Origin: Bdellovibrionales bacterium GWB1_55_8
GTDB taxonomy: Bacteria > Bdellovibrionota > UBA1018
Reading direction: 5' to 3'
NCBI GenBank assembly: GCA_001769835.1
Contig: MEPR01000079.1
Coordinates: 24,891 to 62,674 of the forward strand
Length of the DNA stretch: 37,784 nt
Shown: positions 1,565 to 32,741 of the stretch, one piece after another
Layout: every line of letters begins with the position of its first letter
How positions within the stretch are numbered: position 1 is the stretch's first letter
Notes under the pieces: generated by a model
Told to the model about the DNA's origin: nothing
The model's database searches: none
The model's input: only the letters and a program-made list of their open reading frames with translations
Translations under genes and position numbers: made by a program

Positions 1565-2200
1565 ATGGCAGAATCGAACTCCTCGCGAGTAGCTCGCCTT
1601 CGCGCTGCACTTCATTCGACTTCCTTTTTGGGCCGCCTTTCACATCCGTTCACCGTTTTCGGGGACATGTGGGTGGCGTTTCGGGGACCGGATGCCCCGA
1701 GCCGCAAGATGGCTCTCGTCTTTTTCCTGAGTCTTGGAGTTCTTGCTCTTGCCTTGGGCATGGCTTATCAGCGCTATCTCCGTTTTCAGGATTTGAAGGC
1801 GCTCTCTTCGGGAAGCGCAGCTTTTGAAGATGCTTCCAAGAATATCGGAGAGTTCATTCACAAGCAGGCCGAGACCGCCCGGCACAGGTTCAGTACGCTT
1901 CCTCTGGGTCGTTTCAACGTGGAAGTGCGACCTGCGGTAGGGTCCGAGGGTGATTTCCAGTCCGCTGAAATCGAAATCGTCATTGAATGCGATAGCAAAG
2001 AGACACGTTATTTCATTGAAGATAACATGCCGAGGGTCCGTGATCAGATCACGAACGTACTCCTTCCCTTGGAGCGAGATGAGCTGATGACTCGAGATGG
2101 AAAGAAGCTCCTGAAAAAGAAGCTTCTCGACCGAGTCAATGCATGGCTTCCCGAAGGCCAGGTCATTGAGTTGTTCTTCCTGGACGTCATCGTCAAATAG
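1565..2200 (+). CDS. fliL: FliL-family flagellar basal-body-associated protein (orphan copy)
   Basis: One TM segment, then a FliL-like domain (LPLGRFNVEV...PRVRDQITNVL...ELMTRDGKKLLKKKLLDRVNAWLPEGQVIELFFLDVIVK). Confidence 0.8.
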   Translation: MAESNSSRVARLRAALHSTSFLGRLSHPFTVFGDMWVAFRGPDAPSRKMALVFFLSLGVLALALGMAYQRYLRFQDLKALSSGSAAFEDASKNIGEFIHKQAETARHRFSTLPLGRFNVEVRPAVGSEGDFQSAEIEIVIECDSKETRYFIEDNMPRVRDQITNVLLPLERDELMTRDGKKLLKKKLLDRVNAWLPEGQVIELFFLDVIVK

Positions 2201-6781: not shown

Positions 6782-6894
6782 CCAAGGCTCACTGCTCTCG
6801 CGCAACGTTTCCCGAAAGATCAGCATGCGGAGAGAGAGCGTCAATAAACGCCCGCTTTCAGTTTCCTGTCGAATGGTGATCATGCAGATCATCA

Positions 6895-7167
6895 GAATCC
6901 GACGAATCTCGTACCCCAGGTGAAAACCGATCCCTGCAGCGACGATCAGGGAAGCGCTATGTGCGTCGTTCAGTCCGAGCGCATAAAAGAGGCCGGAAAG
7001 GTAAGCTCGGCCGTCGCCCCGGGAGCCCGGATCTTTCCACCTCCTCGCGTCGAAAGATAGCTGGAGCTTCCGCCTGCATCCAGGCTGAAGCGTGCCTCGG
7101 CCTGCCCTGGGAGGAACAGGGCCAGACTGGCCAGACAGGCCGTCGCAATTTGAAGAGAGATTCTCAT
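6895..7167 (-). pseudogene. Remnant of a secreted, probably outer-membrane beta-barrel gene (3' limit approximate)
   Basis: Signal peptide MRISLQIATACLASLALFLPGQAEA and strand-like RFSLDAGGSSSYL, then a stop after 65 aa. Another frame carries a barrel-like strand LIVAAGIGFHLGYEI. TTTCCA-N17-TACAAT lies 7 nt before the ATG. Confidence 0.45.
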
Positions 7168-7249
7168 GAGTCAGATTGTAAATGGCCAGACGTAAGCTGG
7201 AAAAGACAAAACAGGGTCGCAATAAAGGTCTTTGGGGCGTTCGCTCGAA

Positions 7250-7915
7250 CTACCGCCTCGGGTAGCCTTCCGCGACGAGCGCGTGCAGAAGGGCTCGTTT
7301 CAGCTCTTTCTTTACCAGCGGCGCAGGTCCCCAGATCGTCTGGAAGTTCTGGGGATCGTTCCAGAACTCATCCCATTCGGGAGTTCCGTGAATCCTGTTC
7401 AGGTAGGCGAAAAAGCCCGCGTCTCCCACACGCTCGCGACCTTTTTCGGTGAGTTGAATCTGCAGGTCATTCTTGCAGAGCGTGTTTCGCGTCCCCAGGG
7501 ATGCGATCGCCTTTTCGAACTCCTGCGGAGTGATTTCGATTTCCGACTTCACGAGGCGATACATCGCCCTGAGACCTTTCCTGGCCCTTTTTGAGCCCGT
7601 AGCTGAAAGCGCCTCGCCGACTTTCAGCAGATATCTTGCCTCATGGGCATCAAAGGCGGATTGAGTTCCATCGACAATCACCAGGAAGGGAAAGGCGACG
7701 CCAAGCACTGCAAGCGTGGTGATCGCCTTGAAGTGATCCTGGTCAAAAAATTTCATCGTCTCGTCGTAATCGTAAATGCCCTTGATAAGGAATCCAAAAC
7801 CCCTGTTCTGTTGGATCTCCATCCCGCTCTGCAAATAGCTTTCGGCACATTGGCCGGCAAAGGCTTGGGTACCGCTGAGGGTGATCGCGAGTAAAACAAG
7901 AAGAAGCTTTTTCAT
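7250..7915 (-). CDS. Secreted/membrane hypothetical protein, paralog of 9699..10376
   Basis: Signal peptide ending TQAFA, an internal hydrophobic segment and two Cys. Overlaps the upstream stop by 4 nt (ATGA). Confidence 0.85.
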   Translation of the reverse strand: MKKLLLVLLAITLSGTQAFAGQCAESYLQSGMEIQQNRGFGFLIKGIYDYDETMKFFDQDHFKAITTLAVLGVAFPFLVIVDGTQSAFDAHEARYLLKVGEALSATGSKRARKGLRAMYRLVKSEIEITPQEFEKAIASLGTRNTLCKNDLQIQLTEKGRERVGDAGFFAYLNRIHGTPEWDEFWNDPQNFQTIWGPAPLVKKELKRALLHALVAEGYPRR

Positions 7916-8979
7916 TTTGATTTCCTTCTCAGGATGACTTTGGATTCCTTGAAAACGTCCGAATCATCATCGCGGTCGCCGCCGATCGAGTAGGTGACCT
8001 GAACAGGGGCGCGCGACTGGAGGGGAATCTCGAAATCGTTTTCCTTCTCGTATTTGAGCGAGATCCGGAAAGCTCTGCTCAGGGTCAAGCGCTTCCCGTC
8101 TTTCATCTCTTTTTTTATGGTGCAATCCGAACGTTCGTAGGTCCTTTCGACACACTTGCCGGTGCCGTGGATCTTGAATTTCGGTTCGCGAACTTCGATC
8201 TCCTTCTTTCTTGAGAGATCGAACTCAAGCATGATTCCGTTCGCCGAACCCAGGATCACCGCCTCGGGTGCGAGTTTTCCGCTTTCCCAGTTTTCGATGA
8301 GCTTGGTTGAATTCCAGTATTCCGGATCCCAGCTCTTCATGCAGTCAAAGCCAGCATAGCGCTGCTCCAGGGAATGACAGTCTCGGATCTGGCGTGCGGC
8401 GCGAAGGCCCAGTTGATCCGAATAACGCGCGTAGTTCTGAGCCAGGTCGTCATTGATGATTCCGAAGTGATGAAGCGCTTCCTTGAAGAGCTTGATTCGC
8501 ATTGCCTTCTCGAGATTTTCTTCGGCCTGAAGCTTTTCAAATCCGCGGTTTGATTGCTCAAGCTGACGGACTCCCCAGTCGTAGAAGCCAGAAAGGATGA
8601 AGATCGCTTCCTCGCCATTCTCGTTGAGTCCGAAGTCGAGAAGAAGCGGTTCCAATTCTCCGCGGGGGTTCTTCCGGAAACGACGCTCACTCAGTCGCTC
8701 CTCAATATGACCCAGGATCGAAGCCAGTCTTTCGCGGCTCACCTGATAGGAGGTGAAGACTTCATCGAAGAATGCCTGCGGGGTTTCCCTGGTATCGAAA
8801 ATCAGTCCCTGCGCCGCCCTTTGCTGATGAAGCCTGACGCCGGAATGATAGTAGGCGAAATCACCTCCGCCATCGGCCGTGCCACCTCCTCCTCCGGCGG
8901 CGAAGGAGGGGGTCCATCCGCAGAGGAGGAGGGCTAAGCCGACTGCAATCTGAAGTATTTCCTGGGAGGGCTTTATCAT
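7912..8979 (-). CDS. Secreted hypothetical protein with Gly-rich mature N-terminus and a degenerate HExxH-like motif
   Basis: Signal peptide, then AGGGGGTADGGGD. Later LFKEALHHFGIINDD. Confidence 0.85.
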   Translation of the reverse strand: MIKPSQEILQIAVGLALLLCGWTPSFAAGGGGGTADGGGDFAYYHSGVRLHQQRAAQGLIFDTRETPQAFFDEVFTSYQVSRERLASILGHIEERLSERRFRKNPRGELEPLLLDFGLNENGEEAIFILSGFYDWGVRQLEQSNRGFEKLQAEENLEKAMRIKLFKEALHHFGIINDDLAQNYARYSDQLGLRAARQIRDCHSLEQRYAGFDCMKSWDPEYWNSTKLIENWESGKLAPEAVILGSANGIMLEFDLSRKKEIEVREPKFKIHGTGKCVERTYERSDCTIKKEMKDGKRLTLSRAFRISLKYEKENDFEIPLQSRAPVQVTYSIGGDRDDDSDVFKESKVILRRKSK

Positions 8980-9070
8980 GGCAAAAATACCAGATCGTAT
9001 TAGTACACTATTAATTGCTCGGAAACAAGTCGAATTCTGAGATTCATCTTCTTGTTTTCACAGTGCTTTC

Positions 9071-9697
9071 TTATTCGCGATGACAGGTCATGTACATGTG
9101 GAAAGGCTGATTCAGTGGCAGGCGTTGGATGAGCTCACTGAAACTGATGTTGGGTTCCTCAGCCTGCAGCCGTGCTGCTTCAGGAGAGCTGGCGAAAACG
9201 AAAGAGGTTCCGTCATCCTCCAGGAAGCTTTCAACGCTCATGAGGGGTTTTGTTCCGGCGTATACGACAGCGCTGATGAAGACGCTTTGTCCCACCGGTT
9301 TCGTCGCGATCAGCACGTAGTTTCCCTTTGGAAGTTCATTTGACCCGAACGATGCAAAAGCAAGTGCGGAGTCGTTTTCCCTGCTGAGATCGAGGAAGGG
9401 GATGGTCGAATGGACGCGTCTTCCATCGGCGGTGAAGGCTTCGTGATCGATGACTTTCATTCCCGCGATTTCTTCCCGGCTCAGTCGGGACGAAAACGGC
9501 GGCGTTCCGCGGTCCGAGGCCACGTACATCAGATATTGCCTGCTCATCATCGTCTTCGTCCCAGGATTGTTCTCCGTGGGGTAGCTGTTCTCGATGACTG
9601 TCTTCACTTCCACATCACAGGACATGCGGGACGGTGATGCGGCGTGAGTGTTCAGGGTGATGAGAAAAATTCCAACGCTGATCAGTATCTTTTTCAT
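9071..9697 (-). CDS. Secreted hypothetical protein
   Basis: Signal peptide MKKILISVGIFLITLNTHA, with one Cys near each terminus. Starts 1 nt after the upstream stop. Confidence 0.85.
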   Translation of the reverse strand: MKKILISVGIFLITLNTHAASPSRMSCDVEVKTVIENSYPTENNPGTKTMMSRQYLMYVASDRGTPPFSSRLSREEIAGMKVIDHEAFTADGRRVHSTIPFLDLSRENDSALAFASFGSNELPKGNYVLIATKPVGQSVFISAVVYAGTKPLMSVESFLEDDGTSFVFASSPEAARLQAEEPNISFSELIQRLPLNQPFHMYMTCHRE

Positions 9698-19685: not shown

Positions 19686-21782
19686 CTATGGACGTACTGG
19701 CTCATGGCCATCGGTTGAAGCCGATGGCAGACGAAGAGCGCCAAGGACCGCTCGAAAACGCTGGTGATTTCGTATTTTATTGAATACCGGATCATTTGCG
19801 ACCAACACCATGTGGCTCGCGCGTTCCTCAATGCCATTTTCGAGAAAGGTAAGCGCCTGGTCAGTGTCGCCAAGCGCCGCGTGGAGGGTCGCGATATCGT
19901 AAGCGGAGACATAGCGCTTTTTCGATCGTTTCAGAAGGTCCGATAGAATCTGCCTGGCCTGCGCCGTCTCCCCGGATAAAGCATAGGCTTGCGCCAAAGC
20001 GGATAACATCATGGATTCCCCGCCTGAGAGGTCAGCTGCTCTTTGAAGCGATTGAATGGCGTCGGCTGATTTTCCCAGCTGTATATATGCTCGGCCGGCC
20101 CAATAATGCGGGAGCATGAACGCCGGATTCATCTCGATAGCAGACTGGCAATGGCGAACTGCGGCCTCGTAGTTCCCGGAAAAATAAGCCACGTTTGCCG
20201 CTGCGGATTTTACGATCAACGAGAGAGGTGCCAGGCGAAGAGCGGTCTGAATTTCCATGTCCGCCTCTGAGGGGCGTTTCATGTATGCAAGAAATTCCGC
20301 GTACCACTGGTGAGCGGTCGGGTCGTCAGGGTTGGAAGCAATGGCTCGGCGATAGCGGTCCTCGGCTCCGGACCAATCGTGAGTGAAGTAGAGTTTTCCC
20401 TCGGCGAGCGACAGCAGCGCATCCGTCGAGCCCGGATTGAGTTCCAGGGCGCGGTCGGCATAGAGAAACACTTCGTTCCATGTTGTCTGCGGAGAGGCCC
20501 CACCATAAAAAGACCGCAGGCTGGCAGCGCTGGCCATTGCGGCATAGGCGCTGCTGAAATGCGGGTCGATAGCTACGGCTTTCTTGAGGAGTTCCATGCC
20601 TTGCTTAAGGCCTTCCTCCGTCCTTTTCTCGATGAAATAGCGAGCCTTCAGATAAATCAGGTAGGCCTCACTATTGGGCGTCGGATCCGGATCAGGTCGG
20701 TTTCCAATCGTGCTTGCAGGCGAACGGCCGCGAAACTGTCGGGAAACCTCGCCAGCGATTGTCTTTTGAAGACCGAAGATGTCGTTGAGCTCGCCTTCGT
20801 AAACCTGAGACCAGCGGCTTTCCTGAGATGCAACATCGATGAATTGGACGCTGATGCGGACTCGTTGGCCCAGCGTTCTTACGCTCCCCTGGATCAGATA
20901 TCCGACCTGCAAATCCTTGCCGATCTGCCCCGCAGTTCGATCACTGGATTTGTACTGCATCACGGCAGTGCGAGCCAGGACCCGTAGATCCCCGGAGCGC
21001 GAAAGACTGGAAATCAACTCTTCTGTCAGTCCGTTGGAAAGGTAGGCGTCGTCCTCGCCCTCGTGGCTGATGTTTTCAAAAGGGAGTACGGCTATTCTGC
21101 TCTTTATGTCAGGAGAGTAGCGTTCGCGGGCCAGCTGGAACTGCCAAAGAACTCCGAGGATCAGGGCTGCAGTGGCAACGGCGATGCCGGCCTTCTTGAG
21201 AATGCGGCGGTTGAAAGCTCGACGATTGAACCAGACCCGGGGCGTAGCGGGTATGGCACTGTTTTCAAAACGGATCTCATAGACCGCCACGGGATTTTTG
21301 ATGTTCTTCAATTGCCTGGCGCCGCGATGTTCGACGGGTATGTCGAGTTTGTGATCCACTTGATAGAAAACGGAGCCGCTCATACAGATTCCGCCAGGGC
21401 GCGCGACGTATTGAAGTCTGGCCGCGATGTTTACCCCATCTCCGTAGACATCGCCTCCTGACACGACCACATCGCCGAGGTGAACTCCGACGCGAATCTG
21501 CATCCGCCGGTTCTTAGGTTGATCACGATTCCGCTCAGTAGTCGTTTTCTGAAGTTCTATGGCGAACTGAACGGCGTCGAACGCTGTTTCAAAAACGAGC
21601 AGAAACGCGTCGCCGATCGTTTTTATCTCGGTTCCGAAGTGCTTTGCGACGATCGGTCGCGTAATGTCCCGGTGCTCCTGCAGGAGTTCCAGCGCGAGCT
21701 TTTCGTTCAGGTGGCTCAAGGCGCTATACCGCACGATATCGGTGAAAACGATTGCGGCGAGTTTTCGCTTTCCGTCTTTCAT
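19686..21782 (-). CDS. Class III adenylate cyclase with a TM segment, TolB-like domain and TPR repeats
   Basis: FTDIV, IKTIGDA (Lys favours ATP), DVYGDGVNIAARL, then TM, IAVLPFEN and multiple TPRs. RBS GGAGG. Confidence 0.93.
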   Translation of the reverse strand: MKDGKRKLAAIVFTDIVRYSALSHLNEKLALELLQEHRDITRPIVAKHFGTEIKTIGDAFLLVFETAFDAVQFAIELQKTTTERNRDQPKNRRMQIRVGVHLGDVVVSGGDVYGDGVNIAARLQYVARPGGICMSGSVFYQVDHKLDIPVEHRGARQLKNIKNPVAVYEIRFENSAIPATPRVWFNRRAFNRRILKKAGIAVATAALILGVLWQFQLARERYSPDIKSRIAVLPFENISHEGEDDAYLSNGLTEELISSLSRSGDLRVLARTAVMQYKSSDRTAGQIGKDLQVGYLIQGSVRTLGQRVRISVQFIDVASQESRWSQVYEGELNDIFGLQKTIAGEVSRQFRGRSPASTIGNRPDPDPTPNSEAYLIYLKARYFIEKRTEEGLKQGMELLKKAVAIDPHFSSAYAAMASAASLRSFYGGASPQTTWNEVFLYADRALELNPGSTDALLSLAEGKLYFTHDWSGAEDRYRRAIASNPDDPTAHQWYAEFLAYMKRPSEADMEIQTALRLAPLSLIVKSAAANVAYFSGNYEAAVRHCQSAIEMNPAFMLPHYWAGRAYIQLGKSADAIQSLQRAADLSGGESMMLSALAQAYALSGETAQARQILSDLLKRSKKRYVSAYDIATLHAALGDTDQALTFLENGIEERASHMVLVANDPVFNKIRNHQRFRAVLGALRLPSASTDGHEPVRP

Positions 21783-21813
21783 GCTCCTCCGGGCAGGCTG
21801 AATCCCATTCTGC

Positions 21814-21842
21814 TTATCGGAGAAAGCCGCGTCAAAACTGAG
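21814..21842 (-). promoter_or_regulatory. Putative sigma28 (FliA) promoter of the cyclase gene
   Basis: Minus strand CTCAG-N16-TCCGATAA. The -10 matches GCCGATAA at 7 of 8 positions. Confidence 0.5.
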
Positions 21843-21941
21843 AATTTCTGCAAATCTTCATCATCAGTGCGTCTTCGCAGACCCAGGGGCGCGCCTGCGG
21901 CTCGCGGCGTATACTTGGGGTATTGTCCAAAGGGGAACAAG

Positions 21942-23570
21942 ATGCGGAAGTATGTGGCGCAGGTGTTGGCTGCAACATCTATTATAGGGCTCTCGACGGG
22001 GCTGGTGAGCTGCCGGGAGGTCACGCTCAGTATGACAAATGGCATTTCGGAGCTTTCGTCGACCACCTCGATCGTGGACGCAAATCCTCCAGTCGTGACT
22101 GCGTTCCTGGTTCCGGCATTCCAAAGTTCTCTCCTGGTTTCGGAAATCAGCATCACGGCGACCGACAATCTCGCGGTAACGGAATTCCTTTTAACCGAGA
22201 GCGAGTCCTCTCCGGCGCAGAACGACTCCCGTTGGAGCCCTATCGCGCCCACGAACCATCACTTCTCTTCCTTTGGGACAAAAACTCTTCATGCTTTCGC
22301 CAAGGACGCCGCAGGTAATGTCTCCGCCAGAAAGAGTGCTGGAATCACCATCGCTCCTCCGCCGCCCCAAAGCGGTTCTCCGAGTGAACCGCTCCTGCTT
22401 CAGAGTAATCTCGTTTATCAAGGCGCTTTCCGTATTCCGGGAGGGGATTTTGGAAGTCCTCAATATTCCGGTTTCAGCTATTCCGGAACAGCAATCACCT
22501 ATCACCCCGGGAACAACTCGCTCTACATGGTGGGGCACCCTTACCATAATCTGGTGGCCGAGGTATCGATCCCCGCGATCAAGAGCAGTGGGCAATTGAG
22601 CGAACTCAACACGGCCACTGTTCTTCAGAATTTCTCTGACATCACGGAAGGGAATCTGAAAAATATCAATGCAGGGGGAACACCCTACAGCTCATCACTG
22701 CATGTCGGTGGTCTTCTGGTGTTCAATGGAAGATTGATCGGAAACGTGTACGCATACTACGACGCCGCACACAATGCGGCGCTCTCTCATTTCGTATCCG
22801 GCTTGAATCTGTCCGCAGTCGGTGATTTCCAGGGCATGATTCGCGTTGGAATGCAGAACCCGGGTTTCGTCGCTGGTTATATGGCAACGATCCCGCCTCA
22901 ATGGCAGGCACTGCTTGGCGGGCCCGCGATGACCGGACAAGCCGGGATCCCAATCATCGGAAGAAGCTCGCATGGACCGGCCGCGACTGTTTTTAACCCG
23001 GATGATCTGGGCAGTTCCGTGAGTACTGTTGCGGCGACTCCCGTACTGGGCTATCCGATCGAGCATCCCACCCTGGGGAATTACGGCCACACGGACGCGG
23101 CGATTCCTGCGGGTTTTAACATGTCGACTCAGATCAATGGCGCGGTTTTTCCCGTGGGTTCAAGTACCGTCCTATTCTTCGGGCGGCAAGGGCTTGGAAG
23201 ACCGTGTTACGGACAAGGGACCAGCGATCCCTCTTTGGACCGACAACCAGTGCCGGAATATCCAACTGTCATGTATTGCTACGACCCGGTGAGTGCCGCG
23301 AAAGGCTCGCACGGATATCCGTATTCAATGATCATCTGGGCTTACAACGCGAACGATCTCGTCGCGGCGAAAAAGGGTCAGAAAAATATCTGGGACGTTC
23401 TGCCTTACGATGTGTGGTTTCCTGTTCTTCCCATCGGAACCGGCAACGAAACCATGGGCGGCGTGGGCTATGATCCTGAACGCCAGCTCATTTATGTGTC
23501 GCAGAAAAACGGCGATCCCGGAACGGGGTATTTTTCAGGCCCTGTGATTCATGTTTTCAAGATTCAATAG
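21942..23570 (+). CDS. Lipoprotein with an Ig-like domain and a large C-terminal beta-rich (propeller-like) domain
   Basis: Start moved to ATG 21942: RBS AGGGGA, lipobox GLVS-C, and the ORF-track start overlaps the cyclase. Ig-like ATDN...AKDAAGNVS, Pro linker, then LVYQGAFRIP...YDPERQLIYVSQ. Confidence 0.85.
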   Translation: MRKYVAQVLAATSIIGLSTGLVSCREVTLSMTNGISELSSTTSIVDANPPVVTAFLVPAFQSSLLVSEISITATDNLAVTEFLLTESESSPAQNDSRWSPIAPTNHHFSSFGTKTLHAFAKDAAGNVSARKSAGITIAPPPPQSGSPSEPLLLQSNLVYQGAFRIPGGDFGSPQYSGFSYSGTAITYHPGNNSLYMVGHPYHNLVAEVSIPAIKSSGQLSELNTATVLQNFSDITEGNLKNINAGGTPYSSSLHVGGLLVFNGRLIGNVYAYYDAAHNAALSHFVSGLNLSAVGDFQGMIRVGMQNPGFVAGYMATIPPQWQALLGGPAMTGQAGIPIIGRSSHGPAATVFNPDDLGSSVSTVAATPVLGYPIEHPTLGNYGHTDAAIPAGFNMSTQINGAVFPVGSSTVLFFGRQGLGRPCYGQGTSDPSLDRQPVPEYPTVMYCYDPVSAAKGSHGYPYSMIIWAYNANDLVAAKKGQKNIWDVLPYDVWFPVLPIGTGNETMGGVGYDPERQLIYVSQKNGDPGTGYFSGPVIHVFKIQ

Positions 23571-23624: not shown

Positions 23625-24623
23625 TCAGATCTTCTGTTTCTTGAGATTCAGCTCGGTTGAACCCTCTTCTCCCAGGTCGTGTCGGTTCAGGCATCCGCTG
23701 AGAGCTGAGTGAGAAGGCTCAAGTTTGATCTGAAGCTTGTAATTCTTCTCGTTCTTCAAAGCCTCTTTCATGCCAAGCTTCGCGAGATCCAGCGTGTAAC
23801 GCGAGGTTTCAGTTCCTTCCGCAACCTCAAGAGCGGAGGCCGAGATCTGGCCCGAGAAGAGTTTCTTCGAGAACCAGAGTGTCCGCTGACGTTTGACGGT
23901 GAGACTCAGCTGAACTTCTTTCGAAAACACATGAGTCGGCATTTCAAAGCTGAGCACGCCCGATTTGAAATCGACGCTGCTGATGCCCGTGCGGAACGCC
24001 TTGCGGATGCCAGCTGTCGGAACCAGGGTGACTTCGGCCTGCACCTGTACGCTCTTCTGCTTTCCGTTGACCTGCGTTTCCGCGCTTTCTTTCACGAACA
24101 CGAGGAATTCCCCGGAGGTTCTTGCGGCACTGAAATCAACCGTTCCTGAATGGCGATCGATGCTGGCGCGGAGGGTTTCGTGCGGGACAGCGCCTTCAGG
24201 AGCCGTCACTTTCACGTTGATGGACGCGTTCACATAGTAATCGGTTTCCGTGCCGACCTTGACAGTCGTCGTGTAGCTGCAGTCGTAAAATTCCGTATAG
24301 TACCGGGCCACCTGGTGGCATTCCCGGCGAGGGCTTTCGCGGCATATGCGATGGCCGCGGCGATCGTTGTGGCAAACCCGGTGCGAGACCGTATGGCAGA
24401 CCGTTTCGTAATGACCGAAAACCTGACGAGAGCAGGTTCTGGGGACCAGGACTTCCTGGTACACGTCATGCTCCTGAACGCCGGAAAGCGAGAGTGAGTG
24501 TTCGCTATTGGAGTCGATGGTGAAGGTCTCAGATTGCGAAGCGAATGCGGGCAGCGCATTTCCGGCAGCTCCTGCGATACCGATCCACATTGCCAAACCT
24601 AGAATTTTCAAAAACGATTTCAT
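23625..24623 (-). CDS. Secreted beta-rich protein with a 6-Cys hairpin insertion
   Basis: Signal peptide ending PAFA, RBS AAGGGGA, and CSRQ...VCHT...VCHN...ICRE...ECHQ...DCSY. Confidence 0.87.
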   Translation of the reverse strand: MKSFLKILGLAMWIGIAGAAGNALPAFASQSETFTIDSNSEHSLSLSGVQEHDVYQEVLVPRTCSRQVFGHYETVCHTVSHRVCHNDRRGHRICRESPRRECHQVARYYTEFYDCSYTTTVKVGTETDYYVNASINVKVTAPEGAVPHETLRASIDRHSGTVDFSAARTSGEFLVFVKESAETQVNGKQKSVQVQAEVTLVPTAGIRKAFRTGISSVDFKSGVLSFEMPTHVFSKEVQLSLTVKRQRTLWFSKKLFSGQISASALEVAEGTETSRYTLDLAKLGMKEALKNEKNYKLQIKLEPSHSALSGCLNRHDLGEEGSTELNLKKQKI

Positions 24624-24662: not shown

Positions 24663-24678
24663 AGCAACACGTGTGCCG
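24663..24678 (-). promoter_or_regulatory. Sigma54 -24/-12 promoter
   Basis: Minus strand CGGCACACGTGTTGCT, near-consensus (GGCAC-N5-TTGC). Confidence 0.8.
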
Positions 24679-24950: not shown

Positions 24951-26384
24951 ATGGAGCGAGTGGGGTCGTTTATTCTTGAGCGGGAACTCGGGCGCGGGGC
25001 TACCGCGCAGGTGTTTCTTGCTCATCGAGCAGAAGCGCCTTCTGAAAAGGTCGCTCTCAAGATATTCCATCCAGGCCTATGGGACCGCGAAGATCTTCGC
25101 AAACGCGCTCTCGCGGAGTTCAGGACCGCTTCCGTGCTGAATCATCCGAACATCGTCCGGGTCCTTGAGCCTTGTTGGGAAACAGACAAACCTGCGGTCG
25201 CACTCGAATACGTCGATGGTTCTTCGCTCGAGGAATTTCAGAAGCGCCTGCCATACATTCTTCCTGAAGTAGCCGTTCTGATCCTGATTGAGGTGCTTTC
25301 GGCTTTGGAGCATGCGCATGCGCAGGGCGTGATTCACCGCGATCTGAAGCCTGCCAATATTTTGATCAGCAAATCGGGCCGCGTTTTGGTGAGTGATTTC
25401 GGATTGGCAAAAATGGCCGATGTATCGCGGCTTACGCTTTCGGGCACGATTCTCGGGTCACCCGACTTCATGTCTCCCGAACAGGCCAGAGGCGATGTCA
25501 CGAGCCTGCGATCAGACCTGTTTTCCGCTGCTGCGATTCTCTACTTCCTGATAACCGGAACCAGGCCGTTTGCGCGTCACTCCCCGTTGGCGACGCTTGC
25601 GGCCGTGAACGAGGCAAATGCAGAGCCGGTTCAACGCAGAAACCCGAAGATCAGCGCAGCTCTTGCGCGTACTCTGCATCGGGCTCTTCAGGCGGATCCG
25701 TTGTCACGTCCCGCCTCCGCGGCCGAAATGCGCGCCGAGTTTCAGGATTACTTGTCCGGCCTCGGGTTAGCTCGCGAAACATTCAACTTTGCTGATTGGG
25801 TAAGCAGTCCGACCGAGACCCTGATGGGCGCTATGAAAATTTGCGCGGAGTCCCTGAGTATCCGGTGCGAGGCGCTGATTCGCTCGGAACAGTCGGATAC
25901 ATTTCTGGAGACCCTGGCGCATCTCAGTCTTGTGGCGCCGGAAAGCGGGGCGCTTCCAAGGCTGATGAGTGAATTTGAAACCCGCCAGCGGCAACGCCGT
26001 CATAAAAAATTCCTGATCCCGGGAGTCGCTCTGGGTGTCATCTCCGCCTGTGCGGTTGTTCTGGGTGGCTGGTGGTTTGTTCATGACACCGGTCCGGGCG
26101 TGGACGCGATTCCGAGTACGCAATCCGCGTTGAAACCTGTTTCTCATCCGCCACGTATTGTGGCATCCAAGGCGAAAGCTGCCCCGGCGGTGGGATCCGT
26201 CCGTTTCGATGTTCCTGATGACATTCGCGTTTTCTGGAATGGTAAAAAGGTGAATCGGAAGAAGTCACTCAAGGATCAGAGTCTGGGAAAACATTGGATT
26301 CGCCTTGAAAAGAGCGGCAATCGGCCGATCGTTCGCGAGGTTCTTGTCCGGGCGGGCGAGCCCACGGTCATTCGGGTAAGGTGA
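24951..26384 (+). CDS. Membrane Hanks-type Ser/Thr kinase with an extracytoplasmic PEGA-like domain
   Basis: GRGATAQV, VALK, HRDLKPAN, DFG, GSPDFMSPEQ, then TM FLIPGVALGVISACAVVLGGWWFV and PEGA-like RVFWNGK...GKHWIRLEK. Start set at ATG 24951, after TTGTGA-N17-TAGGTT. Confidence 0.93.
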   Translation: MERVGSFILERELGRGATAQVFLAHRAEAPSEKVALKIFHPGLWDREDLRKRALAEFRTASVLNHPNIVRVLEPCWETDKPAVALEYVDGSSLEEFQKRLPYILPEVAVLILIEVLSALEHAHAQGVIHRDLKPANILISKSGRVLVSDFGLAKMADVSRLTLSGTILGSPDFMSPEQARGDVTSLRSDLFSAAAILYFLITGTRPFARHSPLATLAAVNEANAEPVQRRNPKISAALARTLHRALQADPLSRPASAAEMRAEFQDYLSGLGLARETFNFADWVSSPTETLMGAMKICAESLSIRCEALIRSEQSDTFLETLAHLSLVAPESGALPRLMSEFETRQRQRRHKKFLIPGVALGVISACAVVLGGWWFVHDTGPGVDAIPSTQSALKPVSHPPRIVASKAKAAPAVGSVRFDVPDDIRVFWNGKKVNRKKSLKDQSLGKHWIRLEKSGNRPIVREVLVRAGEPTVIRVR

Positions 26385-26387
26385 CTC

Positions 26388-28220
26388 ATGGCGCAGCTGG
26401 TTCTTTCCGGAAGTCTGGCTCAAGGCACGCGCGAGCGTCAGTTTCTGATTAGAAAAAAAATGATGACCATTGGAACCGAAGCCACTCACGATGTGATGGT
26501 GTCGGCCAGTTCGCCAGGCGTTCTTTTTTCTCTCGTGATCCAGGACGGCTATTGCGAGGTTCTGCCTTCCAGGCGTTTGAGAATCAACGGAAACTCAACG
26601 ATTGGGAGAAGCCGGCTCTCATCCTGCGATCGGATCGAATGGGACGGAGGGTCCGCCGTCTATCTCGACAACGAAATCGCCGCGGCAGCGCAACACGTCG
26701 AGGGCGTCAGTCTGTCCCGTGCATTGGAAGTTCTTCAGAACCTCTCCGCCACGTTGCAAGGCACGGGAGCGCTTCAGGCGGGACTGCACCAGACCCTCGA
26801 TGCATTGGTGGAGTTCGCGGGCGCTGAAGTGGGCTACCTTCTGGTGGAAAATGCGGAGGGTTCGGGGTGGGCTCTTTCCGCCTCTCGTGCGATCGGACAG
26901 GAAAGCGGGGATGTTCCTAGACCCAATCGAAAGGAACTCTTCAGTAATACGATCCTGAAAGAGGCGCTGGAGCGACGCGAACCGGTTTACGTGGAAAACA
27001 TCATCGGACATCCCTGGGGAGACGCCGAAAGCGTGATTGCGGCCCGGATCTTCTCGGCAGCGTGTTTCCCGTTGTGCCTCGGAGAGCGAACGTTCGGCGC
27101 CGTATTCCTCTTCACAAGGTCTCCGGGGAAATCCATTCGCCGGGAGTCGCTCGGAGAACTCAGCCTTCTTGCAAGCCAGGCCGCGTTGATGCTGGCTTCG
27201 CAGGCCGAGCTTTCAAATGCCCGCCGCGAGAACGCGCGTTTGAAGTCGCTCGTGAACGCGGGAGACGGAGAGGTTGCGCTTTATCAGGACTCGCAAAGTC
27301 CGATGGTGGAGGTCGCGCGCAAGCTGGAGAAGCTCGCGCGCACGCCGCTTACGGTACTGATCCTCGGGGAAACGGGTACGGGTAAAGAGGTTGTTGCCCG
27401 TGAACTTCATCGCAAGAGCGACCGCGCGAAGGGCCCTTTTGTCGCAGTCAATTGCGCGGCAATACCGGCGCCTCTTCTGGAGTCGACGCTTTTTGGATTT
27501 GAAAAGGGTGCGTTCACGGGGGCCATCCGCTCGCAGCCGGGTAAATTTCAGATCGCGAGTGGCGGAACTCTTTTCCTCGACGAAATCGGGGATCTCCCGC
27601 TTGAGCTTCAAGCCAAACTCCTGAGAGTTCTGCAGGAAAGAATGGTCGAACCGATCGGCGCGCGCGCTCCGCTCCCCGTGGATATTCGCGTGCTTTCCGC
27701 TACTCATCAGGAACTGGAAAGGGCCGTTCGCGAAGGCCGCTTTCGGCAGGATCTCTATTTCCGTCTGAACGGAGCCACACTGAAAATTCCGCCGCTTCGG
27801 GAGAGAAGGGAAGACATCCTTCCTCTTGCGGACCTGTTTTTGAAGGCAGCCGGTTGTGAGCTTCCGATCTCTCCAGACGCGCGAGAGGCGCTGACTCGTA
27901 ACTCCTGGTCAGGAAACGTACGGGAGCTTCAACAGGTCATTACAAGGGCCGGATTTTTGGCTGAAGGCGCGGAAATCACCCTCAGGGATCTGGAGCTCGA
28001 TTCCCGGGAAGTTCAGTCAGCGGGTGATTCAGAGCACTGGAGCAGCCTTGAGGATGCGCAAACGGCATTTACGAGAGACTTTGTCAGGCGCGCTCTGGAG
28101 CGAAATGGGGGAAGCCGATCGCTGGCCGCGGCATCGCTTGGAGTTTCTGAACGCACTCTTTATCGAATTCTCGCCTCCGAAGCCGACCCGAAAACCGACT
28201 CCAAGGCTGACCCGACATGA
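26388..28220 (+). CDS. Sigma54 enhancer-binding protein: FHA-like + GAF + AAA+ + HTH
   Basis: FHA-like N-terminus, GAF ([19 protein letters not shown]), [36 protein letters not shown] and [13 protein letters not shown]. Starts 3 nt after the kinase stop. Confidence 0.94.
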
Positions 28221-28266
28221 GCCTGGCCATGACAAAGACGGCAGGTGAGGCTGACAGAACTGTCAG
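28208..28266. promoter_or_regulatory. Phased enhancer (UAS) sites
   Basis: TGAC half-sites at 28208, 28230 and 28252 (22-bp period). The last is the perfect palindrome CTGACAG-AA-CTGTCAG (28251-28266). Confidence 0.65.
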
Positions 28267-28299
28267 GAGAGGGCAGGGGCAACGAAGTGGATCGAGTTG

Positions 28300-28312
28300 T
28301 TTCAATGACTTA
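28300..28312 (+). promoter_or_regulatory. IHF-like binding site
   Basis: TTTCAATGACTTA versus consensus WATCAANNNNTTR (one mismatch), between the UAS and the sigma54 site. Confidence 0.55.
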
Positions 28313-28316
28313 GGAG

Positions 28317-28332
28317 TGGCACTGAGGATGCT
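28317..28332 (+). promoter_or_regulatory. Sigma54 -24/-12 promoter
   Basis: TGGCACTGAGGATGCT (TGGCAC-N6-TGC). Confidence 0.8.
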
Positions 28333-28377
28333 TTGTTTGGATCCCATGATCGCAGATCAAAAAAAGGAGAATGTATC

Positions 28378-29274
28378 ATGAGATCGTATTTGAGGGGCGC
28401 AACCGGAGAATTCGGAATCTGGGCCTTTGTGATGGCTGGGCTGACGGCCCTGGTTTTGAGTACGGGTGCTTCGGCGGCCACGTACAATTTTTATTTCAAC
28501 AACACCGAGCAGGGCGATAACAGTACTGCGAGTCCCGCACTGAACGTCCAGGACGGGAAAAATGTCTCGCCAACCCCGCAGGAAACTCCGGCGGCTCAGC
28601 CCACGCCCCTGGCGTTTCCGGACGCTGCGGCCGCAGCACTGGCGAATGCCTCAAGTAACGCGCTTAAAAGCCTGGGTGGCAATCAGGAAACTCCGGTGCC
28701 TGCAGCCCCGGATGCGGCGGGTGCTTCATTGGCGAATGCCTCAAGTGCCTCGCTCAACAGTCCGAGCGGCATTTTTAACCGCGAGTACCGGCCCTTTCGT
28801 TTGATGGTGGGGGCAGCGGCGGTTACAGAACAAGGAACGCATACCTACATATCTGGGATGGGAACAACGGAGAGCTACGAAGACTTCGGGGACATGCGCT
28901 TTGGTGGTGCCGCAAGTCTTGCCCTCTATTTATCGCGCCGTTCCGCTGTGAATTTCTTCGGAGGGATGCAGCAAGTCACCTATTCAGATACGGAGGACTT
29001 TTATCCCACAACGGCGGATCAGCTTCGTGCTTACGCCGGCGTGGAGCTTGAGTTGATGCCCATTCATTTGTCCCTGTTTGGCGTGGAGGATATTTTCGAA
29101 GCAGGGATTTTGCTCGGTGCAACGACGCTTCGTAAGGCACCCGGCAATATCGCTTCAGCACAGGCAGGGGTTCGCCTCAATTTCAATTTTGGAAATGATT
29201 GGGGGCTCACTGCAGCGGGCCGGGCGAACATGGGATTTATTATGGCGGAAGCCGGGCTTGCTTTCCGGATCTGA
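28378..29274 (+). CDS. Probable outer-membrane beta-barrel protein with a long Ala/Pro-rich N-terminal linker
   Basis: Start ATG 28378 (RBS AAGGAG), signal peptide ending GASA, alternating strands, and C-terminal AEAGLAFRI resembling a BAM beta-signal. Confidence 0.82.
   Translation: MRSYLRGATGEFGIWAFVMAGLTALVLSTGASAATYNFYFNNTEQGDNSTASPALNVQDGKNVSPTPQETPAAQPTPLAFPDAAAAALANASSNALKSLGGNQETPVPAAPDAAGASLANASSASLNSPSGIFNREYRPFRLMVGAAAVTEQGTHTYISGMGTTESYEDFGDMRFGGAASLALYLSRRSAVNFFGGMQQVTYSDTEDFYPTTADQLRAYAGVELELMPIHLSLFGVEDIFEAGILLGATTLRKAPGNIASAQAGVRLNFNFGNDWGLTAAGRANMGFIMAEAGLAFRI
28579..28758 (+). repeat. Internal tandem duplication in the linker
   Basis: CAGGAAACTCCGG at 28579 and 28684. TGGCGAATGCCTCAAGT at 28640 and 28730. 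Protein QETP...PDAA..ALANASS occurs twice. Confidence 0.85.
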
Positions 29275-29286
29275 TCGAGGTGTGAC

Positions 29287-29919
29287 ATGGAAAAAATCAA
29301 TTATATCGACAAAAGTATTCTGGTTTTCGTAGTTCTCGCTGCTCTGAATGGATGCAACTGGGATCCCGAGGCCTTGGCAGGAAAGTCTTCCAGGTTTGTG
29401 GAGCACACCGAATCAGCTGACTCATGCTCGCAGTCTGGTTACGAGATGCGGCAGTCCTGGGCAACGATGCCTGAGGGCGCAACCTGCAGCGCTCCCATGC
29501 CGCAAATCATTCACATTGAAACCCTTTCAGATGGGGGGCTTTTGGTTCGAGTGAAAAAACTCCCGGACGGGAAAGTGCCGAGCATCGGAAAGATGGTCTT
29601 TGCGACGCAATGGGGTCCCGAGAGAATGGTGGCGTTTCAGTGCACCAATACGGGAGAGGCCCTGGACATGAGCGGGTTTGAAATCACGTGCCAGCCCCAA
29701 TCCGCAAAAAGAGTCAGTCCGGTGGAACTCGCTTCGTCGGATCTGCAGCTTTTATTGAAAGCGATTCTGATAAGTAACCCAGATTGTGGCGCGCAAATAC
29801 TTTATGAGGCCGTCTCTGCATCGCGGCCTTGCACGTACGGTAACACCCTTCATTCGATGGTGGCCATGGGATCCGTGTTCTTCCCGAGCCTTTGGTTAGA
29901 AGACTCTGATAGCTTGTAA
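29287..29919 (+). CDS. Cys-rich lipoprotein of unknown function
   Basis: Lipobox LAALNG-C, RBS GAGGTG, and six further Cys. Confidence 0.8.
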   Translation: MEKINYIDKSILVFVVLAALNGCNWDPEALAGKSSRFVEHTESADSCSQSGYEMRQSWATMPEGATCSAPMPQIIHIETLSDGGLLVRVKKLPDGKVPSIGKMVFATQWGPERMVAFQCTNTGEALDMSGFEITCQPQSAKRVSPVELASSDLQLLLKAILISNPDCGAQILYEAVSASRPCTYGNTLHSMVAMGSVFFPSLWLEDSDSL

Positions 29920-29943
29920 GCAACTCACGGTCCTTCTTCGTTT

Positions 29944-29981
29944 TGCGGCGATCTTCCAGCTTGGGGGATCGCCGCAGTTTT
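29944..29981 (+). terminator. Intrinsic terminator
   Basis: Stem TGCGGCGATC/GATCGCCGCA, extended by TTCCA/TGGGG, followed by GTTTT. Confidence 0.75.
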
Positions 29982-30065: not shown

Positions 30066-32741
30066 ATGAACTCCCCACTGCGTTCGATGTCGCCTCGTTT
30101 TTTTCGTGGTTCTCTCACCGCCCTGCTGCTGATCTCCCTCGCAGGTGCCACCGGCTGTAAAAAGCCGCCAACGACATTTAACGCTGTCGAGGGCACTGCC
30201 ACGATCGAGGTGAAGCTTCAGGCCAAAGACAAGGCTGACTCGACCGAGCTGAAGGACCGTGAAGGTGTGCTTCGGTTGAAGTATGAACGCGCGGGCGGCA
30301 CGGTTCTCGATCAGCTTTCGACGGATGTTTCATTCACCGGATCAGCCAAAGTTCCGTTGCTTGCCAAGCCTGTTCTTAAGAAAAAGGATCCTTCTGAGAT
30401 TCCAACCTTCGTGCTGGCCGGCATCAGTATCCTCCCGGTCGAGGCTCTGGGTTCGGAAACGCCCGTGAAGTCTTTTGCTGATTTCGCGGGAACGGCGCTC
30501 TCTGAATTGAAACTCAAGGCGGAACGAGGCGAGGTGAAGATTCTTCTCACGTTCGTGGGCGCGGACACGCAACCGGCCGTTGAGGTTGTCAAAACGGATC
30601 GGCCCGTTTACGACCGGGATCCAGCTACCCATTACATCTCGATCAAAAGCGTCTTCGGGAGCCTGAACGCGGTTCTTGAAGCGACTGATATCCAAGCCAC
30701 GCTTGCTCAACTCAGGGCTATTGCATCTGCAACATATGAATATCACCGGGAGCTCCTGGAAGTCGCGAGGCAAGGGAAGAAAGTGGATCTGGAGCACACG
30801 ATCCTGCTTCTTGATGCGGCGTATTTCACGGTTGCGGACGCCGAAGGCATGAAAGCCCGGATCGCCGCTTTATATAAAAGATTGGAGAAAACTTCCGATT
30901 CGCAGTTGCGCCGGGATCTCCAGGCCGAGGTCAACCGTGTCGAGAGGAACTATTCGCTTGCGCGTGAGTTCGGTCAGTTCACCAACCAGATCGTCGCGAC
31001 GGTGGTCAAGAAATTGTCCGACTTCACGCTCGAGAACGCCACGATTTTAAGTGAACGTCTCTTCGCGGGCGATGGCACCAATGCTCTGTTCGACGAAGTG
31101 CATGGCAAGTTCAGCCCGTTCAGCGCTGACCAAAAAACTTTCTGGATGGATCGCGCGGTTCTGAAAGGCGCCTTTGCCAGTGCAGGAAAGTTCGCGCTCG
31201 ATTATTTCAAGCAGGACACTAGCAAGGATTTTGAAAGTCTGAAGGCGCTGGTGCTGAAATTGAAAGGAACCGATGGAGCGGATGTCCTGATCGTTGGCGC
31301 TCTTCCTGAATTCAGTGAGCTGAGTTTTGAGCAGGCGAAATTTCTGGTCTCCCAAAGCAATCAGAAGGCCGTTGAGATCGCACTGGATGTGCTGAAGAAG
31401 GTGACTGCGATCACCGCGGCGCAGCTGGTATCGGTCGCCGATCTGTTTCACTCCTCTTCTTCAGCCCGCGATCAGATCCTTCTTGCTGGTTTGCCGAAGA
31501 TAAAAGCTTTGAACGTGAACGAGACCAAGGCGATTGTTTCGGCTTCCTATCAGAAGGGAGTGGAAATAGCGCTCGCGTGCTTCAAAAAGGTGAGTTCACT
31601 CAAGGGTGAGGACGTCGCTTCTGTTTGCGAGCTCTTCAATTCGAGTTCATCTGCTCGTGACAGTATTCTTATCGGGGCAATTCCAAGCCTGGCAGTGGTC
31701 ACGCCCGCAGGCATTCACGCGATGGTTGGTGCCAGTTATCAGCGCGGGACCGAAATCGCAGGGATGCTCTTTCCGAAAACTACGAGTTTGACTGGGGAGG
31801 AAGTGGCAAAAATAGCGGAGCTTTATAATTCGTCAAGTTCGGCACGCGATACCATTATCCTCACGGCTCTTCCGCATCTGAAGCCCGTCACGTTCAGTGG
31901 CGTAAAGGCGATGGTGCAGCAGAGTTACCAGAAGGGGGTTGAGCTGTTTAAAACCGCGTTGCCTAAACTCGGCTCCATCAAAGCAGCGCAAGCCCTCGAA
32001 GTGGTGAGTCTCTACAACACGAGTTCATCTGCCCGCGATCAGATCCTTACAGCATCGCTCGATTTCATCGGGATCGTTCCGGTTTCCGAGATCGTGCAGC
32101 TGATGCAGGCGAGTTATCAGTCTCATGAAACCCTTGGGAAGACCCTGATGGGACGCCTGGAAGTTCTGACGTCAAAGGAGCTTGCGAGCATCGTGAGCAT
32201 TTATCATTCGAGCTCAACCGTTCGAGATCGCCTGCTGCTGGCCGGCCTGCCAAAGATCGTGCAGCTCTCGGCAGCCGAGACGATCCTGTTGATTCGTGAG
32301 GCTTATCAGGAGCATCTGAAAATAGCACTTTTCGCGTTGGACCGGATTCCAGGCATGACGGCGAATGACGTGTTCTTGATCGCGGACGTTTATCACAGCA
32401 GCTCCACTGTCCGTGACACGATCGTGACTGAAGGCCTGGCGCGGCTGAAAAGTGTCAAAACAGCGGAGTTGATCAAGCTGGTGCACGCGGCTTACCAGAA
32501 ACATCTGGAGATCACGCTGGCCGGATTGGAGAGGACCTCTGACTTGAGCGTGAACAACGCGATTCAGATCGTTTCGATCTATCACTCGAGTTCTTCGGCT
32601 CGCGATAAGATACTGCTGAAAGCCATCGATTTCGTGACAGATCTCGATGAAGAGAATCTGATCCGCCTGGCCGATCAGGCTTATGCGGATCGAAAAGGGG
32701 TTCTGAAGAAAGGCCTGGAGCGGCTTCGGAATCAGCGTTGA
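30066..32741 (+). CDS. 891-aa lipoprotein with a C-terminal alpha-solenoid of 63-aa repeats
   Basis: Lipobox AGATG-C and seven (F/Y)(H/N)(S/T)SS(S/T)(A/V)RD cores. Confidence 0.9.
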   Translation: MNSPLRSMSPRFFRGSLTALLLISLAGATGCKKPPTTFNAVEGTATIEVKLQAKDKADSTELKDREGVLRLKYERAGGTVLDQLSTDVSFTGSAKVPLLAKPVLKKKDPSEIPTFVLAGISILPVEALGSETPVKSFADFAGTALSELKLKAERGEVKILLTFVGADTQPAVEVVKTDRPVYDRDPATHYISIKSVFGSLNAVLEATDIQATLAQLRAIASATYEYHRELLEVARQGKKVDLEHTILLLDAAYFTVADAEGMKARIAALYKRLEKTSDSQLRRDLQAEVNRVERNYSLAREFGQFTNQIVATVVKKLSDFTLENATILSERLFAGDGTNALFDEVHGKFSPFSADQKTFWMDRAVLKGAFASAGKFALDYFKQDTSKDFESLKALVLKLKGTDGADVLIVGALPEFSELSFEQAKFLVSQSNQKAVEIALDVLKKVTAITAAQLVSVADLFHSSSSARDQILLAGLPKIKALNVNETKAIVSASYQKGVEIALACFKKVSSLKGEDVASVCELFNSSSSARDSILIGAIPSLAVVTPAGIHAMVGASYQRGTEIAGMLFPKTTSLTGEEVAKIAELYNSSSSARDTIILTALPHLKPVTFSGVKAMVQQSYQKGVELFKTALPKLGSIKAAQALEVVSLYNTSSSARDQILTASLDFIGIVPVSEIVQLMQASYQSHETLGKTLMGRLEVLTSKELASIVSIYHSSSTVRDRLLLAGLPKIVQLSAAETILLIREAYQEHLKIALFALDRIPGMTANDVFLIADVYHSSSTVRDTIVTEGLARLKSVKTAELIKLVHAAYQKHLEITLAGLERTSDLSVNNAIQIVSIYHSSSSARDKILLKAIDFVTDLDEENLIRLADQAYADRKGVLKKGLERLRNQR
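31446..32738 (+). repeat. Seven 189-bp (63-aa) coding repeats
   Basis: First core at 31446, seventh at 32580 (6 x 189 bp). One degenerate copy precedes them. Confidence 0.9.

Follow-up and report, generated by a model that had tools for sequence, protein, structure and literature searches.

The window examined here is a 37,784-nt stretch of the forward strand of contig MEPR01000079.1 (assembly GCA_001769835.1, positions 24,891 to 62,674) from Bdellovibrionales bacterium GWB1_55_8, an uncultured bacterium of predatory type. It contains a cassette of four plus-strand genes and a terminator, which together span window positions 24951-29977, with the last gene ending at 29919. The genes encode a Hanks-type Ser/Thr kinase, a sigma-54 enhancer-binding protein (hereafter the activator), a secreted protein with a small outer-membrane beta-barrel, and a putative lipoprotein. 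Judged from sequence and its conservation, the cassette is probably a dedicated one-target signalling unit of Bdellovibrionota, in which the kinase would act on the activator and the activator on the adjoining sigma-54 promoter. An initial annotation of this DNA had proposed the order kinase, activator, enhancer, promoter, barrel, lipoprotein, and terminator, and each element was found at or near its proposed position. Nearly all of that layout of cis elements and targets stands; the start of the barrel gene has been corrected, and a site resembling that of integration host factor (IHF) is still uncertain.

The features of the cassette are as follows (window positions).

24951..26384, plus strand: Hanks-type Ser/Thr kinase; kinase domain, helical juxtamembrane region, one transmembrane span, Pro/Ala linker, and C-terminal periplasmic PEGA domain
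26388..28220, plus strand: sigma-54 enhancer-binding protein; degenerate FHA (residues 1-95), helix, GAF (129-269), AAA+ (303-465), lid, and HTH_8 (567-593)
28230..28243, plus strand: upstream enhancer, half-conserved site TGACA-N4-CGGCA, recognized from sequence
28250..28267, no strand: main enhancer site, perfect palindrome CTGACA-N4-TGTCAG; TGACA core at 28252, 66 nt 5' of the -24 GG
28300..28312, plus strand: IHF-like element TTTCAA-N4-TTA (uncertain); 8 of 9 consensus positions
28317..28332, plus strand: predicted sigma-54 promoter, -24 GG / -12 GC; exact match to TGGCAC-N6-TGCW
28378..29274, plus strand: secreted protein with a small outer-membrane beta-barrel; signal peptide, mature N-terminus TYNFYFNNTEQG..., Pro/Ala-rich linker, and C-terminal barrel
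29287..29919, plus strand: putative lipoprotein with 7 Cys; 210 residues, with x-x-DPEAL-x-GK after the lipid Cys
29943..29977, plus strand: intrinsic terminator; hairpin of 16 pairs (9 G-C), then a T run

Conservation of gene order and control elements

Loci related to the cassette come from three sources, and all genomes compared are metagenome-assembled genomes (MAGs) of uncultured organisms. The first source is a search for activator orthologues in the genomes of 40 relatives. Full-length orthologues are present in five of them, and one more is cut by a contig end. The kinase gene lies directly 5' in all six of these loci, and a barrel homologue lies 3' in all five complete ones. The second source is a scan of 185,579 species genomes for the N-terminal motif of the barrel protein, which returned 11 loci, all in records titled as Bdellovibrionota-type MAGs. 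The activator is directly 5' in 8 of the 11 (six with the kinase too, two cut by a contig end), and the motif loci without an adjoining activator are L023, L029, and L030.

The third source is a set of 301 genomes sampled across the phylum and searched with a profile of the N-terminal domain of the activator (N-domain). The profile matches in 22 of the 301 genomes, as a single copy in each, and these are concentrated in few families. The sample contributes 16 further loci, all 16 with the kinase directly 5' and 11 with a barrel 3' by tblastn. Duplicate contigs among the loci are L021 (the same as L018), L022 (L015), L024 (L014), L053 (L028), and L054 (L026).

When the sources are pooled, 24 unique loci extend upstream of the activator, and in all 24 the kinase is directly 5' of it. 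One of the loci, L066, retains only the last 37 kinase residues before the contig end. Kinase stop and activator start are separated by -29 to +12 nt in 22 of 23 loci. The two genes are always adjacent and, as their spacing predicts, translationally coupled. A neighbourhood that is not conserved had been set beforehand as grounds to refute the initial annotation; this is not the case, as the kinase-activator-barrel order recurs in several families of the phylum, accompanied by the enhancer and promoter.

The first gene downstream of the activator encodes a secreted protein with an aromatic YNF-type motif at its mature N-terminus in all 23 loci having sequence there, with the exact YNF core in 19 (tallied by eye). 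The motif is kept in L063 and L068 although tblastn saw no barrel, the barrel being too diverged in both. Lipoproteins with a similar N-terminus are encoded 3' of the barrel gene in the window and in eight other loci (L014, L015, L018, L020, L061, L062, L065, and L067), in line with the four-gene synteny that had been suggested. Across the 301 genomes, the activator N-domain is found in 22 and the barrel in 27, with both in 20 and neither in 272. The genomes with the activator only are G061 and G098, both by weak matches, and the G098 locus (L068) does encode a motif protein. Weak matches also account for four of the seven genomes with the barrel only (G139, G209, G247, and G300); three of these matches cover the barrel part only, and that in G139 covers most of the profile.

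The control region lies directly after the activator gene, where the initial annotation had placed phased enhancer sites. The enhancer pattern has two matches only in the window, at 28230-28243 and 28252-28265. They are spaced 22 nt apart, and the second is inside the perfect palindrome. L015 and L017 also have a second enhancer site at an equal 22-nt phase. The 16-nt palindrome occurs once in the 3.78-Mb genome. The sigma-54 promoter that had been proposed at 28317 is recovered as TGGCACTGAGGATGCT (28317-28332), the sole exact match to TGGCAC-N6-TGCW in the window.

Both elements recur in the other loci. An enhancer-like site is present in 20 of 24, with 18 at the 3' end of the activator gene and two (L014 and L018) before a displaced target gene. 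A -24/-12 element is present in 21 of 24, and the distance from enhancer to promoter is 45-76 nt in most loci. Over the 24 loci, the enhancer pattern is hit 21 times in the 3,600 nt where it is expected versus 8 times in 282,340 nt elsewhere (206-fold), and the promoter pattern has 18 hits in 4,800 nt versus 31 in 281,140 nt elsewhere (34-fold). A single copy of rpoN is encoded in the genome (457 bits against a cut-off of 277), and the genome has about 21 activator-type AAA+ matches. By its GG and GC at fixed spacing, the activator site upstream, and the presence of rpoN, the element is recognized as a sigma-54 promoter, and its transcription would depend on rpoN and the activator.

The position of the cis elements is informative in two loci, L014 (genome G008) and L018 (genome G018). 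Genes are inserted there between the activator and the target, and both cis elements are displaced together with the target. The inserts split the activator from the enhancer, and the cis elements therefore belong to the target gene. Barrel genes in L023 (2965-3804) and L030 (7792-8543) likewise have the palindrome and the -24/-12 element, without a neighbouring kinase or activator.

The inserts themselves are two small minus-strand open reading frames (ORFs) in L018 and one 179-residue ORF in L014. The target gene is multiplied in L028/L053 (G077, ~5,800-9,600), L014, L016, L017, L025, L027, L054, and L058, with up to five tandem paralogues. Each paralogue has the N-terminal motif, and the enhancer and promoter stand before the first only.

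The IHF-like site is the least certain element of the control region. The sequence TTTCAATGACTTA (28300-28312) agrees with the consensus at the 8 of 9 positions listed above, a score equalled in 2% of shuffles. Scores of 8/9 are also found in L017, L053, and L025, and of 7/9 in L015, L018, L027, L063, and L064. An enhancer-promoter pair is present in 18 loci in all, and the other 9 of them reach scores of 4-6; an IHF site was for this reason rejected as a general feature of the cassette. Such elements are missing in loci with shorter enhancer-promoter spacing and are kept only in nearer relatives. The proposed site thus holds as a match in the window and is only partly conserved across loci.

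Proteins of the cassette

The kinase passes the Pfam Pkinase family (PF00069) with an E-value of 5.3e-42 and 144.5 bits against a cut-off of 31.7. The VALK, HRDLKPAN, and DFG motifs are present and are kept in an alignment of 10 orthologues. After a single hydrophobic span come about 100 extracytoplasmic residues, the last 70 of them PEGA-like. The Pfam gathering score for PEGA (PF08308) is not reached by the window kinase (15.0 bits against 20.8); in the 10 orthologues, the Pfam match is sub-threshold in eight (E 6e-4 to 0.05) and absent in two. A PEGA-like beta-sandwich fold is supported by an ESM Atlas model (residues 425-494; template modelling (TM) score 0.74-0.81 to PEGA clusters), by an Atlas feature score of 0.94 for PEGA, and by 28 of 30 hits with the PEGA family set. 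The transmembrane kinase with a PEGA-like outer domain described at the outset is therefore recovered, with PEGA recognized by fold. The start of the gene is ATG 24951, in agreement with the starts of the orthologues and with the Atlas record; the alternative ATG 24900 fits both less well and was rejected.

The activator is a protein of 610 residues that starts 3 nt past the kinase stop. Its Pfam domains are GAF_2 (E 8.1e-13), Sigma54_activat (PF00158; E 3.5e-68, 229 bits), and HTH_8 (PF02954; E 2.5e-6, 27.5 bits against a cut-off of 22). The features of an enhancer-binding protein, i.e., GAFTGA, Walker motifs, DEIG, and a C-terminal helix-turn-helix, are all found in the translation and alignment. 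The activator alignment also shows good conservation of the GAF domain: within a GHPW stretch, G207 and H208 are invariant and W210 is nearly so.

The N-domain is not recognized as FHA (PF00498) by Pfam in activator residues 1-115, even at E <= 10. Pfam gives FHA-type matches in 2 of 10 activator orthologues, and these are weak (FHA, E 0.015; Yop-YscD_cpl, E 0.16). A word-indexed search with residues 1-120 returned the query and one other protein only. A profile built from the N-domains of 10 orthologues has as its best match among Protein Data Bank (PDB) sequences the FHA domain of KIF13B (3fm8; E 5.4e-4). Another kinesin-3 and Slr1951 also match, with YukB and afadin lower in the list. In a library of 1.84 billion representative proteins, 141 match the profile at E <= 1e-3 and 31 at E <= 1e-10. 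A Pfam scan of 32 of the 141 gave 20 GAF and sigma-54 activators or fragments without an FHA call, 11 canonical FHA proteins (E 1e-23 to 1e-64), and one FtsK-type protein with a YscD-like match.

Structure prediction gives a consistent picture. The AlphaFold2 (AF2) model of the N-domain, built from a 47-row alignment, has a mean predicted local distance difference test score (pLDDT) of 87, with block means of 96-97 over residues 21-90. Nearly all of its best Foldseek matches are FHA domains or FHA-like cytoplasmic domains of type III secretion systems (T3SS), at TM scores by target of 0.7-0.8 for single-domain chains. They include 3po8, GarA/OdhI (6i2p, 4qcj, and 7rj3), KIF13A, Ki67, Bdellovibrio DgcB, YscD, and PscD. 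The predicted fold of the N-domain is that of FHA. The FHA-like/GAF/AAA+ activator placed 3 nt from the kinase is accordingly confirmed, the GAF and AAA+ domains by Pfam and the FHA fold by AF2, Foldseek, and the PDB profile.

The residues that bind phosphothreonine in canonical FHA domains were mapped onto the N-domain by alignment pattern. An Arg after the invariant Gly occurs in 2 of 47 family members. The positions equivalent to SxxH read G-x-x-F, with Phe in 40 of 47, and the Asn of the Asn-Gly motif is retained in 46 of 47. Asp81, Arg82, and Trp85 of the N-domain are also conserved. The lack of the phosphothreonine residues that had been noted for the activator of the window (IGT, no SxxH) therefore extends to nearly the whole family with regard to the Arg.

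The barrel gene starts at ATG 28378, which is preceded by GGAG. This start replaces the TTG 28333 of the raw ORF, so the barrel gene of the initial annotation is retained with a corrected start, and its product is an outer-membrane barrel by AF2 and Foldseek. The mature N-terminus, TYNFYFNNTEQG..., is nearly invariant across 21 family members and is far more conserved than the remainder of the protein (alignment A1). The aromatic N-terminal motif occurs in one protein of the window's own genome. A Pro/Ala-rich linker of about 100 residues follows, modelled at low confidence (block pLDDT 40-59), and then a C-terminal domain of about 160 residues. The pLDDT of the barrel domain is 87-98 per 10-residue block over residues 141-298, except for 68 at 201-210. 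Foldseek returns 27 matches at E <= 1e-3, the best being AlkL, Ail, OprF-N, OmpX, and OmpA. With its signal peptide and modelled barrel domain, the protein structurally fits the small 8-stranded class (OmpX/Ail/OmpA-N/OmpW).

By sequence, the barrel protein could be placed in no described family of outer-membrane proteins: it has no hit in Pfam, and its only NCBIfam hit (E 0.035) is of low complexity and below threshold. A word-indexed search of 5.8 billion proteins found 15 matches including the query; they have no Pfam domain and are named "hypothetical protein" or are unnamed.

The product of the fourth gene (P0004) matches no family in Pfam or NCBIfam. Its 7 Cys agree with the Cys-rich lipoprotein proposed earlier, and it is treated here as a putative lipoprotein. 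The lipobox region reads ...AALNGC, and the orthologues have SAC, TGC, GGC, AAC, or TAC. The Asn at -2 departs from the usual lipobox consensus. The Atlas gives no usable feature hit for the lipoprotein, and its structure hits have TM scores of 0.35 or less, below the bar for naming a family. The closing terminator that had been noted is found as the hairpin and T run at 29943-29977.

Proposed coupling of the kinase to the activator and rival readings

In the proposed mechanism, the activator would bind the palindrome through HTH_8, assemble its AAA+ ring, and open the sigma-54 promoter of the barrel-lipoprotein unit. Before any action of the kinase, the ATPase would be held inactive by the FHA-like and GAF domains, and the kinase in turn would be switched by a periplasmic cue that is read through the PEGA domain. 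Signalling from kinase to activator is inferred from their adjacency and translational coupling. The FHA-like domain is without the phosphothreonine-binding Arg, Ser, and His, and docking with direct phosphorylation is thus favoured over phosphothreonine reading. The most likely coupling is a phospho-independent docking of the FHA-like domain on the kinase, together with direct phosphorylation of the activator, which would relieve the repression of the ATPase. Coupling by classical phosphothreonine reading is unlikely.

Several points weigh against a dedicated one-target unit driven by the kinase. The genomes compared are related and are not independent trials, so the counts overstate independence. 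With the patterns used, 4 of 24 loci have no enhancer match and 3 of 24 have no promoter match. Strong barrel matches occur without a match to the activator N-domain in G002, G261, and G228. In G002 (locus L030), the enhancer and promoter are kept with no activator or kinase within 8 kb upstream, and there is no full-length activator orthologue in an assembly that is 98% complete. The barrel genes of G002 and L023 may be orphan targets, or their regulator may lie in an assembly gap. No terminator is present between the activator and barrel genes, and read-through could express the targets as well. As for the input, the FHA-like domain, judged by its residues, would be unable to read phosphothreonine in the known manner, so the textbook kinase-FHA link does not apply, and the GAF domain alone could be the input.

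The last of these points leads to the main rival. The GAF domain would sense a small molecule, as in NorR/NifA-type proteins, the kinase would merely be co-transcribed and have other substrates, and the FHA-like domain would only oligomerise. The good conservation of the GAF domain (G207, H208, and W210) and the missing phosphothreonine-binding residues agree with this account, and GAF-mediated repression of AAA+ is reported as established in NorR (PMC2941729). However, the kinase adjoins the activator in all 24 loci, with tight coupling in 22 of 23, which is unexpected for unrelated functions, and the cassette has no further conserved partner gene. A purely GAF-driven activator is considered unlikely.

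A second alternative extends the dedicated kinase-activator unit to a feedback loop. The PEGA domain would read the aromatic N-terminal peptide of the barrel protein or the lipoprotein, and the cassette would monitor the delivery or assembly of its product, or form a tether across the envelope. Conservation along the barrel protein is by far strongest in the mature N-terminus, which is kept in L063 and L068 despite a diverged barrel. The low-confidence linker of about 100 residues is long enough to reach the inner membrane, and in every locus the other conserved element in the periplasm is the PEGA domain. The motif could, however, equally serve a chaperone, sorting, or assembly step outside the cassette, and a loop of this kind is rather improbable. 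A complex prediction for the kinase periplasmic region (378-477; A4) with the barrel N-terminus (34-75; A1) gave "no answer" (score 0.30, mark 0.32) and is not evidence either way.

In its fullest form, the cassette would be a self-monitoring envelope circuit in which the ligand of PEGA is the N-terminal peptide of the barrel protein, held in the periplasm on a long flexible linker, alone or with the lipoprotein, and the FHA fold has turned from a phosphate reader into a permanent docking module that relays the signal to sigma-54. The chance of this is put as low as that of the loop itself. If true, the kinase would measure the arrival of its own reporter protein at the outer membrane, as an eukaryote-like-kinase counterpart of sigma-E/DegS logic.

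It is very improbable that the palindrome and -24/-12 element are non-functional and that a sigma-70 operon starting 5' of the kinase simply ends with the barrel and lipoprotein genes: the missing terminator would suit such an operon, but both elements are conserved across families, shift with the target in L014 and L018, precede barrel genes without a neighbouring activator in L023 and L030, and are enriched at their expected places to the extent given above.

The dedicated kinase-activator-promoter unit, the reading preferred here, would be a minimal system. In 5 kb it combines one kinase, one activator, one genome-unique palindromic enhancer, one promoter, and two target genes. With one target, the system is easily testable and could be reconstructed in a laboratory host that carries a reporter. 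An FHA fold without phosphate-binding residues that is still strictly linked to a kinase raises a mechanistic question, i.e., docking or reading. The barrel proteins of the cassette moreover make up an uncharacterised outer-membrane protein family of Bdellovibrionota, marked by an invariant N-terminal peptide.

Other genes of the window lie outside the cassette. A second sigma-54-like element, CGGCAC-N5-TTGCT with one mismatch, is found at 24663-24678 on the minus strand, about 40 nt 5' of gene 23625-24623 (minus strand). This gene encodes P0006, a secreted protein of 332 residues with 7 Cys for which no family was found. One-mismatch sigma-54 matches number 5 in the window against 3.2 expected. 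The element (24678-24663, minus strand) was rejected as part of the cassette: no CTGACA-type palindrome is near, and the other loci have no P0006 next to the kinase.

Past the terminator, at 30066-32741 (plus strand), lies a gene for an 891-residue putative lipoprotein with about nine tandem repeats that contain a Ser-rich "SSSSARD" motif. Neither Pfam nor NCBIfam assigns it to a family, and it is absent from related loci. Another sigma-54 activator, with no N-terminal input domain recognized by Pfam, is encoded at 2204-3538 (minus strand) and adjoins a FliL-like gene at 1565-2200 (plus strand). The gene at 19686-21782 (minus strand) encodes an adenylate/guanylate cyclase domain fused with a long tetratricopeptide repeat region. 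In the ORF at 21480-23570 (plus strand), the first ~150 codons look non-coding; a likelier start gives a lipoprotein-type signal peptide near residue 155, and no family was found.

Comparison with known systems

Searches of open-access papers and preprints found no account of the cassette, the family of its targets, or signalling from kinase to activator in Bdellovibrionota. No worked-out triplet of Hanks kinase, activator, and promoter was found in them. Parts of the predicted circuit resemble several known systems.

NtrB-NtrC is composed of a membrane or signal-linked kinase, an AAA+ activator, an upstream palindrome, and a -24/-12 promoter, and the same parts are predicted here from sequence. 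Unlike NtrB-NtrC, the cassette has no histidine kinase and no receiver, and the enhancer is just 45-76 nt from the -24 element in most loci. NorR and NifA share the GAF-AAA+-HTH architecture with the activator, which matches the NCBIfam models of NorR (E 4.8e-93) and NifA (E 2.9e-90), both under their cut-offs. NorR and NifA have neither an FHA-like domain nor a kinase partner, and their ligands (NO-iron and NifL, respectively) are not implied here.

PknB-GarA and PknG-OdhI of actinobacteria also pair a Hanks-type kinase with an FHA-fold regulator, and GarA/OdhI are among the best structural matches of the N-domain. The targets of GarA and OdhI are enzymes, and both proteins recognize phosphothreonine by the canonical residues. 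In the cassette, by contrast, the phosphothreonine residues are missing and the predicted output is transcription.

Phospho-independent use of the FHA fold is illustrated by unrelated systems, the kinesin-3 proteins KIF13B/KIF13A and the T3SS proteins YscD/PscD, whose FHA folds bind partners without phosphate. In the profile alignment, the FHA domain of KIF13B (3fm8) has Ser instead of Arg after the conserved Gly and is like the activator N-domain in lacking this Arg.

For the feedback loop, the nearest counterpart is DegS-RseA of the sigma-E pathway, where an aromatic peptide at the terminus of outer-membrane proteins is recognized by a domain in the periplasm. The likeness is an analogy only; DegS-RseA uses a PDZ domain, a C-terminal motif, and proteolysis, and there is no homology.

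The closest precedent is in Myxococcus xanthus, an organism rich in Hanks-type kinases. Jelsbak, Givskov, and Kaiser reportedly described FHA-domain enhancer-binding proteins there in 2005 (PNAS 102:3010) and proposed a kinase input, and Hanks-type kinase input into sigma-54 transcription is said to have been proposed for myxobacteria. As in those proteins, the FHA fold of the sigma-54 activator replaces a receiver as N-terminal input. Unlike them, the activator of the cassette has a GAF domain between FHA and AAA+, has lost the Arg, Ser, and His of the phosphothreonine pocket, and has an FHA domain below the Pfam threshold. Its kinase gene is in the same operon, and its regulon is apparently one adjacent promoter. 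The logic of the cassette is thus anticipated by the Myxococcus proposal; what is new is the degenerate FHA domain, the fusion of kinase and activator in one operon, the predicted single-target regulon, and the target family.

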